From the IMG/VR virus record IMGVR_UViG_3300029305_003884, positions 1 through 64,000 of that record: a stretch of DNA of 64,000 bases; one strand, given 5' to 3'. Positions 11,580 through 13,887 of the stretch are shown piece after piece; position 1 is the stretch's first letter; each line of letters begins with the position of its first letter. Source of the stretch: a virus. Its lineage: Duplodnaviria > Caudoviricetes. The position numbers and the translations under genes are program-made. The notes below the pieces were generated by a model that did no database searches, was not told the DNA's origin, and worked only from the letters and a program-made list of their open reading frames with translations.

Positions 11580-12386
11580 TTACCTCATTAAATTCATGAT
11601 ATCGTTTTCACTGATGTTTGCGTACATGAGTTCGTTCTTGAAGGACTGAACCATGTTCATAACCCTGTCTTTGTGGCCGGGGTGGGTTCCGTACTGCTGG
11701 TTTCGGTATTTAGTATTGTCCATGAAGAAGAAGATAAGCGTCAAGAACACGGCTCCTTCGGCAAACGAGCTACCAAATCCAGTACCTTGCAGAATCGAGC
11801 AGGAGAACAGGTCGCATGAGCGTTCGTTGTTTCGGGAAACATTGTTGGAGATACCGTTGGTGCGGTCCATGTGACCTAGCATGATGTGCCCGATTTCATG
11901 GCCGAGAACAAATGTAATCATCTTGCGGCCAAGTTCCATGTACTGCGGGTAGTACTCCTTTACACGATATTCGGGGAACTTCTTGTAGAACTCATCAATC
12001 TTTTCCTCGTCCACGGCATCCCAGTCATCGTTATACGCCTTAAGCTCGTATAGCGTCTTGTCGAAAATCCATTTCAGGGCACGCTTCACTTGATGCAAGT
12101 TGTGATTCTTGGTATAGAGAGTGAATACGGCGGCACATGTGCATATCAGGAGGCTCAATCCCTCGAAGGTATACACTTTATAGGACCTGTTCCCAGCATA
12201 GTTTGCGAACGAATTGGCTATCATTTCTGGGGTGTAGACGAACTCGACCCTTTCCATCTTTTCAAGGTACTCTCGGTTCCTTGCGATATAGCTCGACGCC
12301 ATTATCACGTTGATTGCATCGTCCACCATATCATGAATGGGATATGTTGGCGGTTTGGGAAGTTTTTTGCTACCGAATAAACTCAT
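11580..12386 (-). CDS. Zinc metallopeptidase (M48/Lit-U49-like)
   Basis: FVLGHEIGH, NERSCD and THP...RV motifs. Confidence 0.8.
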   Translation of the reverse strand: MSLFGSKKLPKPPTYPIHDMVDDAINVIMASSYIARNREYLEKMERVEFVYTPEMIANSFANYAGNRSYKVYTFEGLSLLICTCAAVFTLYTKNHNLHQVKRALKWIFDKTLYELKAYNDDWDAVDEEKIDEFYKKFPEYRVKEYYPQYMELGRKMITFVLGHEIGHIMLGHMDRTNGISNNVSRNNERSCDLFSCSILQGTGFGSSFAEGAVFLTLIFFFMDNTKYRNQQYGTHPGHKDRVMNMVQSFKNELMYANISENDIMNLMR

Positions 12387-12401: not shown

Positions 12402-13145
12402 TTAGCGTTTAGCGCTCCATGCCAAGCGTATTTTCCTACGCATTCGGGTCAGTAAGAGCACCGCCTTTTCCTTGCTACAATTGTGGGATTCTGCATATAC
12501 ATCGGTCGCCAGCTTGGGCGACTCGGTCGTTACCAGGTATCCGTATATTTCCTGCATCTCTGGGTCGAACGTGTCCAGAAGCTTCGAGGCAAATTGCAGT
12601 TTGCCCTGTGAGTCCGCATCGTACGGGTCTATCGAACGCAGGTATTCAATTTCTTCGCCGTCCTTCCCCTGTTTAGTGGTTTCGACATAAGTCAATGTCG
12701 TCTTCTTGGACGGGTTGACGTATACCAGTGCATCTTCGGATATGAATTTCTTGATGTAACCATGAAGACAAAGCACCATATATGAATTGAAGGATGCGCC
12801 GCCTTCTGGAGTGAAATTTTTCACCAGAGTTCCGAAATGCACATACGGTAGGTGTACAAGCTCGTTGGCGTCTAGTGAATACTGTTTTGCGTAATTGTTG
12901 TACAATCTGATAAGATAAAGCGAGTAATTGCCGATTACGATGTCTCGATAGGTGTTATACTTACGCCTGCTAACCATGTCGTCGCTTGTTAGCAGTTTCT
13001 TGCACATGCCTACTATTGCATTTATCAGGGCGCCAGTATTCTCCATCTGTAGTTTTGACTTTAATGCGCTTATGTATGTTTGTGATGTTTTATATGAGTC
13101 GGATAATACTTTTTTATCTACATACACCACTTCCTTTTTTATCAT
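12402..13145 (-). CDS. Sigma70-family-like phage sigma factor
   Basis: Region-2-like NFTPEGGASFNSYMVLCLHGYI and a C-terminal HTH-like segment. Confidence 0.6.
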   Translation of the reverse strand: MIKKEVVYVDKKVLSDSYKTSQTYISALKSKLQMENTGALINAIVGMCKKLLTSDDMVSRRKYNTYRDIVIGNYSLYLIRLYNNYAKQYSLDANELVHLPYVHFGTLVKNFTPEGGASFNSYMVLCLHGYIKKFISEDALVYVNPSKKTTLTYVETTKQGKDGEEIEYLRSIDPYDADSQGKLQFASKLLDTFDPEMQEIYGYLVTTESPKLATDVYAESHNCSKEKAVLLLTRMRRKIRLAWSAKR

Positions 13146-13178: not shown

Positions 13179-13433
13179 TTATCCAGAATTTTTGCATATA
13201 TGTGTACCATTCCTTTCTTGTTTGTAAGGAAATATAATAAATTTTAGATACACTTGCAAGCCTTTTATATACAAAAAATTAAAGTCGGGAATTTCCCGAC
13301 TTCTCTTGTATTTCTTTTTTGACTGAACCACTCTGCATCTCAGCTTCCGACCGTTCTCGGTCTCCGCTATCCGCAGCTTCCTGGCATAAGGAGTTTCCTT
13401 AGCGTCGCTTATTTTTAGGTATATTTGTTTCAT
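13179..13433 (-). CDS. ArfA-like basic small protein (candidate ribosome rescue factor)
   Basis: PYARKL...RKLRCRVVQSKKKYKR resembles the ArfA core; internal terminator precedes the stop codon. Confidence 0.55.
   Translation of the reverse strand: MKQIYLKISDAKETPYARKLRIAETENGRKLRCRVVQSKKKYKRSREIPDFNFLYIKGLQVYLKFIIFPYKQERNGTHICKNSG
13231..13259 (-). promoter_or_regulatory. Host sigma70-type promoter for the sigma-factor gene
   Basis: TTGCAA-17 nt-TATATT. Confidence 0.7.
13272..13302 (-). terminator. Intrinsic terminator inside ORF 13179..13433
   Basis: AAGTCGGGA-AAT-TCCCGACTT followed by TAATTTTTTG. Confidence 0.75.
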
Positions 13434-13437
13434 GATT

Positions 13438-13830
13438 CTATCCTTGTAGTATGCAGTCTTTCAGCATGGCCATCGCATTCGCCACATCGGAATCCATAGG
13501 TTCGGCAGGATTTTTCACCGTAGTTACGGAAGTTCCGCACGGACCCTTCTCGACAATCGTCGACAGGCTTCCAGTAGGGGTGCTAACGCTTGAAGAACAG
13601 ATTTCCTTACGGTCTCTTTCGGTAAGCGGCTCGAACTCGTAGCTGTGGTTCTGCTTGAACTTTTCTATCGTAGCAAGGATGTCGTTGTAGCCATAGCCAG
13701 GAGCGTTGATTGCACGACGGTTGAACTCCCCTATGACATCACGTTCCTTATAGAGGTTTTCATTGTGGTCGCTGTAACCAATTACGTTACCAGAGACTAT
13801 CATGCTCGGCAATGCACTCTCGACTCCCAT
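13438..13830 (-). CDS. Hypothetical late protein
   Basis: Downstream of TATAAACTA at 13879-13887. Confidence 0.6.
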   Translation of the reverse strand: MGVESALPSMIVSGNVIGYSDHNENLYKERDVIGEFNRRAINAPGYGYNDILATIEKFKQNHSYEFEPLTERDRKEICSSSVSTPTGSLSTIVEKGPCGTSVTTVKNPAEPMDSDVANAMAMLKDCILQG

Positions 13831-13878: not shown

Positions 13879-13887
13879 TAGTTTATA
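13879..13887 (-). promoter_or_regulatory. Putative late promoter TATAAACTA
   Basis: One of 15 exact copies, each about 20-50 nt upstream of a start codon. Confidence 0.75.

Follow-up and report, generated by a model that had tools for sequence, protein, structure and literature searches.

A conserved terminator inside the reading frame of a small basic gene of phages and Fibrobacterota points to a candidate ribosome rescue factor made from a stop-less message

Two gene families, arfA and brfA, are the only ones known to sense trans-translation capacity through a message that lacks a stop codon by design, and no such message is known for ArfT of Francisella tularensis. The arfA gene, found in E. 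coli and other beta- and gamma-proteobacteria and encoding the protein also called YhdL, carries an internal hairpin; its message is subject to RNase III cleavage and premature termination, and the full-length form of the product is unstable (PMC3989581). In brfA of Bacillus subtilis, which encodes YqkK, an internal rho-independent terminator gives rise to a stop-less message and a 62-aa product, the level of which is kept low by trans-translation (PMC6881298). The authors of that work predicted that many bacteria hold undiscovered systems of this kind. ArfT, as far as the description in its preprint extends, has been proposed to recruit a release factor (bioRxiv 10.1101/465609). In this work we have examined a small ORF in a window of 64,000 nucleotides, the whole stretch of viral DNA that was analysed. 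A sequence-only reading had taken this ORF for an ArfA-like gene, encoded by a phage and expressed late, whose message should end before its stop codon. We asked how far the locus resembles the described systems and what its small product might be.

The window comprises the first 64 kb of an IMG/VR record (IMGVR_UViG_3300029305_003884) of 178 kb, with an estimated completeness of 42%. Complete relatives with terminal repeats measure 419 and 422 kb, and the source is a rumen T4-like phage with a genome of roughly 420 kb. The ORF (13433..13179 on the minus strand, 84 aa, ATG start) is present as it had been quoted, including the basic stretch, and its first 54 codons specify 16 Lys and Arg and 6 Asp and Glu residues, with a computed pI of 10.3. 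Its AAGGA site (Table 1) abuts or overlaps the stop codon of the preceding 130-aa gene. The hairpin, described earlier as having a perfect 9-bp stem, is borne out by both sequence and folding. It can be drawn with 9 perfect pairs (13302..13282) or with 10 pairs of which one is G-U (13303..13281); the 61-nt region 13320..13260 folds at -19.8 kcal/mol with z = -7.1, and none of 200 shuffled sequences was equally stable. The T-run 3' of the hairpin is interrupted by A-A and extends to about 13272. There is indeed no in-frame stop from the ATG to the end of this run, and the stop codon (13181..13179) follows only 30 codons later, past the sigma-70-like promoter of the next gene (13259..13231), which falls inside the tail of the small ORF. 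An RNA that ends at about 13277..13272 is predicted to give a product of 52-54 residues (about 53, with a net charge of about +10), and the tail encoded by 13179..13271 most likely lies outside the functional protein. The coordinates and features given in the earlier reading are all borne out. An Rfam search of the window gave no match.

Table 1. Features of the small-ORF locus in the window
Feature	Coordinates	Strand	Basis or remark
T4-type late promoter box TATAAACTA	13879..13887	-	about 46 nt 5' of the 130-aa gene
130-aa gene, first of the putative two-gene late unit	13438..13830	-	ORF list
Shine-Dalgarno-like AAGGA	13441..13445	-	8-12 nt 5' of the small-ORF ATG; kept in DNA alignments
Coding part, codons 1-54, predicted non-stop product	13272..13433	-	conservation and codon pattern
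Terminator hairpin (predicted), codons 44-51	13281..13303	-	9-10 bp, 3-nt loop
U-rich tract, codons 52-54, expected RNA 3' end	13272..13280	-	sequence; indels and frame changes start right 3' of the tract
30-codon tail and stop	13179..13271	-	unconserved; homologue tails differ in length and frame
Sigma-70-like promoter of the next gene (TTGCAA, 17 nt, TATATT)	13231..13259	-	sequence; kept in relatives
Next gene, 247 aa, weak sigma-factor region-2 similarity; downstream border of the element	12402..13145	-	profile searches

The proposal that the ORF is phage-encoded and expressed late agrees with its surroundings. The box TATAAACTA at 13887..13879 is one of 15 exact copies in the window, where 0.32 would be expected, and because this copy precedes the 130-aa gene, the small ORF would be the last cistron of a short late unit, with the hairpin as the terminator of that unit. 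All phage relatives have the 130-aa gene in the syntenic position, with 32-89% identity. The gene that follows the small ORF is likewise syntenic in all relatives (40-83% identity), and its profile matches (Pfam Sigma70_r2, E 0.063; PHROG 351, E 0.0037; NCBIfam SigB/F/G, E 0.019) suggest that its product may be a phage sigma factor; its promoter is of the host type (TTGCAA/TATATT) and not a late box. The gene order common to the phage relatives is a gp13-like neck protein, small genes, the 130-aa gene, the small ORF, the sigma-like gene, a U49/M48-type peptidase and a glycosyltransferase. The peptidase gene (11580-12386, minus strand, 268 aa), which adjoins the sigma-like gene in all relatives, matches Peptidase_M48 with E 5e-8 and shows a weaker similarity to Peptidase_U49, the family to which Lit belongs, a protease that attacks EF-Tu in T4 exclusion. 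A protease directed at translation next to a candidate rescue factor is possibly worth attention. A blastn search of the locus against phage GenBank records found no match. Aragorn detected neither tRNA nor tmRNA in the 178-kb record, a tmRNA model matched only tRNA-sized pieces in the two complete relatives, and neither an RF-1 domain nor SmpB was found in three phage genomes.

Is the ORF a real gene, and is the hairpin more than an accident of its sequence? A search covering 5.8 billion proteins returned 31 homologues, in which residues 1-53 are near-invariant while the annotated lengths range from 55 to 113 aa. At 14 loci, third positions vary in 31 of the codons 1-42 and second positions in only 8 of these 42, a pattern which indicates purifying selection on the protein and confirms that the ORF is a real gene. 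In codons 43-54 of the same loci third positions vary in just 3 of 12, at the loop and at the end of the U-tract. The hairpin stem is invariant at the nucleotide level, with variation inside the hairpin confined to loop positions, and the U-tract has two changes among these otherwise frozen codons. Such freezing at the nucleotide level argues for an added constraint on the RNA itself. The picture alters abruptly behind the U-tract, which encodes Phe-x-Phe: the tails that follow comprise 2-58 residues in 32 sequences, and the DNA alignments show single-base and 6-9-base indels, which change the frame, immediately 3' of the tract. What conservation remains in the tail coincides with the two promoter hexamers. 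Even the 55-aa homologues (L011 and L013) have their stop two codons past the U-tract and not before it. The earlier proposal would have been contradicted by homologues with a stop ahead of the hairpin; in the hairpin-bearing homologues examined, which comprise 31 proteins, 20 chromosomal loci and about 20 phage loci, the U-tract is never preceded by a stop. The 178-kb record contains 27 strict terminator-like sites, 9 of which have at least 50 open codons in some frame, mostly in alternative-frame ORFs; it is the conservation of hairpin and open frame in the relatives examined that places their combination far beyond chance. Elsewhere in the same phage, outside the window (G000, 167965-167993, minus strand), another terminator-like site accompanies a 50-codon ORF with its stop at the end of the U-tract.

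More distant phages carry the layout in a different sequence. Three syntenic orthologues (L027/28, L030 and L042/43), the flanking genes of which are 32-48% identical to those in the window, have hairpins that differ in sequence yet share the register after a conserved Tyr codon. Stem pairs were counted in a gapless alignment anchored on this codon, since MAFFT misregistered the hairpins. Among the three hairpin types, double changes that preserve pairing occur at 6 of the 10 stem pairs. The frame is open through the U-tract in each lineage, with a stop directly after it in L027, four codons on in L030 and a dozen or more codons on in L042. The peptide segments encoded by the stem vary from one phage lineage to another, and for this reason we conclude that the structure itself is what is conserved. 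Taken together with the chromosomal genes discussed below, these comparisons indicate that compensatory mutations have preserved the terminator-in-frame layout in four phage lineages as well as in bacterial chromosomal genes. The earlier claim of a terminator placed before the stop codon thus describes a real layout, which conserved and compensated hairpins show to be maintained by selection. Two records filed as bacterial contain the phage form of the gene in a phage neighbourhood, namely L044 (JAFXNA010000004.1, 317 kb, labelled as a Bacteroidaceae MAG from sheep reticulum) and GCA_016852305.1; they are probably megaphage contigs that were binned into bacterial genomes.

The family numbers at least 804 proteins. 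In an exhaustive profile search we found more distant small proteins of 50-70 aa. Their common core consists of Lys-Glu-Ser/Thr, two spaced Arg residues, Asn-Gly, a strand-like segment Arg-x-Arg-Val-Val, a Lys run and Tyr-x-Arg. Bacterial members show the spacing Tyr-x-Arg-x-x-Lys-His; the clade of the window is without the Lys-His pair and has a shorter basic tail. Several phage members (L023/24, L025/26, L031 and L041) have no hairpin, end in an ordinary stop and are followed by the next gene within a few bases. Ordinary stops are used by at least four phage lineages, as well as by many other family proteins (our P-numbers), so non-stop gating is not universal in the family. The stop-bearing relatives end 8-13 residues past Tyr-x-Arg, often right after Asp-Phe, which is where the U-tract-terminated message of the window would end. 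It follows that 52-54 residues are the natural full length of the family, in keeping with the truncated product of about 54 aa proposed earlier, and that the annotated tail is an artefact of the position of the next stop. A caution for annotation arises from this: in most cases the deposited ORFs of 55-119 aa would be artefacts that lengthen a product of about 50-70 aa. The motif is also embedded in larger proteins, P0055 (303 aa) and P0047 (1217 aa), one of which is acidic. These could be fusions, assembly artefacts or another use of the module, and they fit poorly with a tail that has to thread into the mRNA channel.

The regulatory reading draws its strongest argument from the chromosomes of Fibrobacterota, where the same layout is found, a feature that did not enter the earlier reading. 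When one genome per prokaryotic species was scanned, copies of the family were found in Fibrobacter and Hallerella assemblies. Exactly one copy each is present in 33 of the 121 Fibrobacterota genomes sampled; among the carriers are cultured F. succinogenes and several isolates of Fibrobacter sp., and all copies are annotated as 'hypothetical protein'. One bacterial locus has the gene for ribosomal protein L21 on one side and a sigma-54 activator, in convergent orientation, on the other, and these flanking genes identify the copy as chromosomal. At all 20 chromosomal loci read, the frame runs through a 12-bp hairpin and a U-tract, with compensated hairpin variants at L059 and L060. The tails past the U-tract comprise 4-35 aa and are mutually unrelated; the predicted terminated Fibrobacter form ends at Asp-Phe-Pro-Phe. 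Neighbouring genes vary from genome to genome, and where they were examined the next gene is either convergent or unrelated, so at these loci the hairpin is not an attenuator for the gene downstream. In three genomes (loci L045/L054, L055 and L056 in G004, G064 and G058) the only copy is nearer to the phage type and contains Glu-Thr-Glu-Asn-Gly-Arg-Lys-Phe-Arg; the identity of L045, the one member of this group that was aligned with the window, is 53-57% to the protein of the window and 31-41% to the main Fibrobacter type. The sequences suggest gene exchange between these phages and Fibrobacterota. Phage-type copies in Fibrobacterota, together with the 47.5% G+C of the phage, support Fibrobacter as host, and we regard Fibrobacter as the probable host of this uncultured megaphage clade. 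As to rescue systems already present, tmRNA was found in all three Fibrobacterota genomes checked; Pfam ArfA (PF03889) was absent from all three, with no match over the threshold and weak matches elsewhere in the genome. In G004, the sole genome searched in this respect, RF1, RF2 and an ArfB-like ORF are all present. A published survey reported no ArfA in 1,956 genomes of the FCB group (PMC11633108).

How closely does the candidate resemble the known rescue factors? The resemblance to arfA begins with the in-ORF hairpin, with the predicted absence of a stop from the message and with an active form about 55 residues long (PMC3989581). Truncated ArfA has 55 aa and a pI of 10.3, the corresponding values for the window being 54 aa and 10.3. 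Annotated lengths scatter in both cases, from 55 to 113 aa here and from 69 to 110 aa for ArfA of close Enterobacteriaceae, in which the tail past the hairpin drifts; length scatter among near-identical small proteins is a possible cheap search signature for stop-less genes. Homology is another matter. PF03889 gave no match at E<=1 with the protein of the window and 30 relatives and none at E<=10 in a six-frame search of the phage genome. The NCBIfam search of the small-ORF protein returned no match, and profile searches of PDB chains found nothing relevant at E<=10, in a copy which may not contain the BrfA chain from the published structure of BrfA on the ribosome (PMC6881298). In two hhalign runs against an ArfA alignment restricted to Enterobacteriaceae the P values were 0.015 and 0.0043 and the probabilities 3% and 8%, over 21-22 columns. 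The same columns were aligned in each run: the Arg-x-Arg-Val segment, the Lys run, a 3-residue gap opposite Gly-Lys-Gly of ArfA, and Tyr-x-Arg. This match is not significant, and it lies on the segment of ArfA that contacts RF2 and enters the mRNA channel. The ArfA core Lys-Gly-Lys-Gly-Ser-Tyr was not found, only the flanking Lys run and the Tyr being in common; the Lys-Gly-Lys-Gly-Ser insert is absent here, although the ArfA spacing Tyr-x-Arg-x-x-Lys-His does recur in bacterial members of the family. The truncating element differs as well, being mainly an RNase III site in arfA and a terminator here. Of the term 'ArfA-like', then, the non-stop layout is supported and the homology is not.

The locus also resembles brfA, the RF2-dependent product of which is likewise encoded with a rho-independent terminator inside the coding region, has about 55-62 residues and in its active form lacks the annotated C-terminal residues. 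Rescue factors of this sort are species-specific (PMC6881298). In BrfA a helix at the N terminus leads into a positively charged C-terminal stretch, and the prediction made here would allow a comparable shape. With 30 sequences AlphaFold2 placed a moderately confident helix at residues 15-32 and then an extended basic tail or coil (mean pLDDT 69), whereas 10 close sequences gave a mean pLDDT of 48; the modelled shape is compatible with a BrfA-like form and proves nothing. The two differ in that BrfA belongs to Bacillaceae and the present family to Fibrobacterota and their presumed phages, and in that the copy in the window is viral and stands at the end of a putative late two-gene unit. ArfT, by its description, is like the candidate in being very small, basic and stand-alone, with no GGQ motif. 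A catalogued domain that comes near is DUF7230 (PF23876). Four distant members of the family matched it below threshold in the basic Tyr-x-Arg-Lys segment, the best of them scoring 24.2 bits where the cut-off is 27; one family protein (P0250) has DUF7230 in its precomputed annotation, and in the ESM Atlas a stored relative led to unnamed clusters and one DUF7230 cluster only. There was no DUF7230 match in the protein of the window or in the phage genomes. DUF7230 is a domain without known function, and we found no mention of it in the literature. A resemblance to ribosomal protein L34, noticed by eye, was dropped, as Pfam gave no support for it. The family is uncatalogued and common to Fibrobacterota chromosomes and several phage groups.

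Could the layout serve something other than rescue? The serious rival, though we think it the less likely reading, accepts the layout as real and sees in the peptide some other small basic protein that binds nucleic acid or the ribosome, such as a stress regulator, a hibernation-type factor or a virion- or DNA-associated protein, with a level tied to trans-translation by chance or with a C-terminal tail that is simply tolerated. It draws on the lack of demonstrable homology to any rescue factor, on the many relatives with ordinary stops inside phage operons, on the presence of the motif in the 303-aa and 1217-aa proteins and on the late structural neighbourhood of the gene beside the gp13-like neck gene. 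However, the proteins known from designed non-stop messages are all rescue factors, compensatory change has maintained the layout in five lineages, among them free-standing chromosomal genes, and the local ArfA match, non-significant as it is, coincides with the functional segment of ArfA. It is improbable, in our view, that the small ORF is a cis-acting attenuator, in which a ribosome close behind RNA polymerase would keep the hairpin from terminating, so that translation sets how much late-unit transcription continues into the sigma-like gene. Ribosomes do strongly repress terminators that lie in a translated ORF or a few bases past it (PMC4824070), and the next gene is co-directional and begins 34 nt beyond the small-ORF stop. 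Against this, the peptide is under strong purifying selection and has relatives with ordinary stops that would act in trans, the sigma-like gene has its own conserved promoter, and the chromosomal loci L045 and L063 face a convergent gene, where there is nothing to attenuate.

Two further readings concern the frame itself. The window does contain the heptamer A-AAA-AAG (13320..13314, minus strand, codons Ser38-Lys39-Lys40) and an out-of-frame TAA at the 3' foot of the stem, so that a -1 frameshift stimulated by the hairpin could provide the terminated RNA with a stop after all. Synonymous changes of lysine and serine codons destroy the heptamer in most relatives (L002-L013), the spacer of 10-11 nt is long, and the shifted frame would drop the conserved Tyr-x-Arg segment. 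The heptamer is probably a coincidence of lysine codons; we rejected the frameshift, which we consider very improbable, as the slippery site is not conserved. Least credible of all is a spurious ORF, in which case conservation would concern nothing but the late-unit terminator as an RNA or DNA element. The nucleotide-level conservation of the hairpin region would agree with it, but the variation of 31 third against 8 second positions in 42 codons does not, and neither does a family of at least 804 proteins in which hairpin-less relatives keep the protein. The substitution pattern excludes a purely non-coding reading.

We are left, with a confidence somewhat better than even, with a trans-translation-gated, stop-less gene that encodes a release-factor-dependent rescue factor and is carried by a phage. 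The parts of this explanation differ in strength. A non-stop layout in the style of arfA and brfA is well supported by the sequences, and the match rests on the in-frame terminator, the absence of a prior stop, the drifting and dispensable tail and the conservation in free-standing chromosomal genes. That the message would be stop-less and the level of the peptide gated by trans-translation is likely; that the peptide itself acts as a release-factor-dependent rescue factor is moderately likely. Our hypothesis is that transcription of the late two-gene unit mostly stops within the U-tract, at about 13277..13272, which would leave the message with no stop codon. Ribosomes would stall at the stop-less 3' end, where tmRNA-SmpB would normally tag the peptide for degradation, and untagged peptide would accumulate only when trans-translation is saturated, as for E. 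coli arfA and B. subtilis brfA. The N-terminal helix and the short strand-like segment might then recruit a release factor while the lysine- and arginine-rich tail occupies the empty mRNA channel. Perhaps the phage copy sustains ribosome recycling in the late phase of infection, in which the tmRNA system of the host may be overloaded by heavy translation and mRNA decay. Ribosomes that translate through a terminator can suppress it (PMC4824070), which may lower the share of non-stop transcripts.

The stop-less layout as such is known from arfA and brfA; what would be new here is a family that uses this design and a virus that carries it. Our literature search found no description of a phage-borne or Fibrobacter rescue factor of this kind. 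It is possible, although we would put it somewhat below an even chance, that this is the first virus-encoded, tmRNA-gated, release-factor-dependent rescue factor, that its bacterial cousins are the missing ArfA/BrfA analogue of Fibrobacterota, either a third independent invention or a very old and diverged branch of the design, and that giant phages captured it for late translation. The same design is kept by compensatory evolution in an unrelated small basic protein. The family represents a core 'hypothetical' gene of F. succinogenes, a cultivable cellulolytic bacterium of the rumen, and of phages of roughly 420 kb. For the FCB group it provides a candidate new rescue factor that can be tested directly and, if this reading is true, the phage would be the first virus to carry such a factor with its regulatory logic intact.
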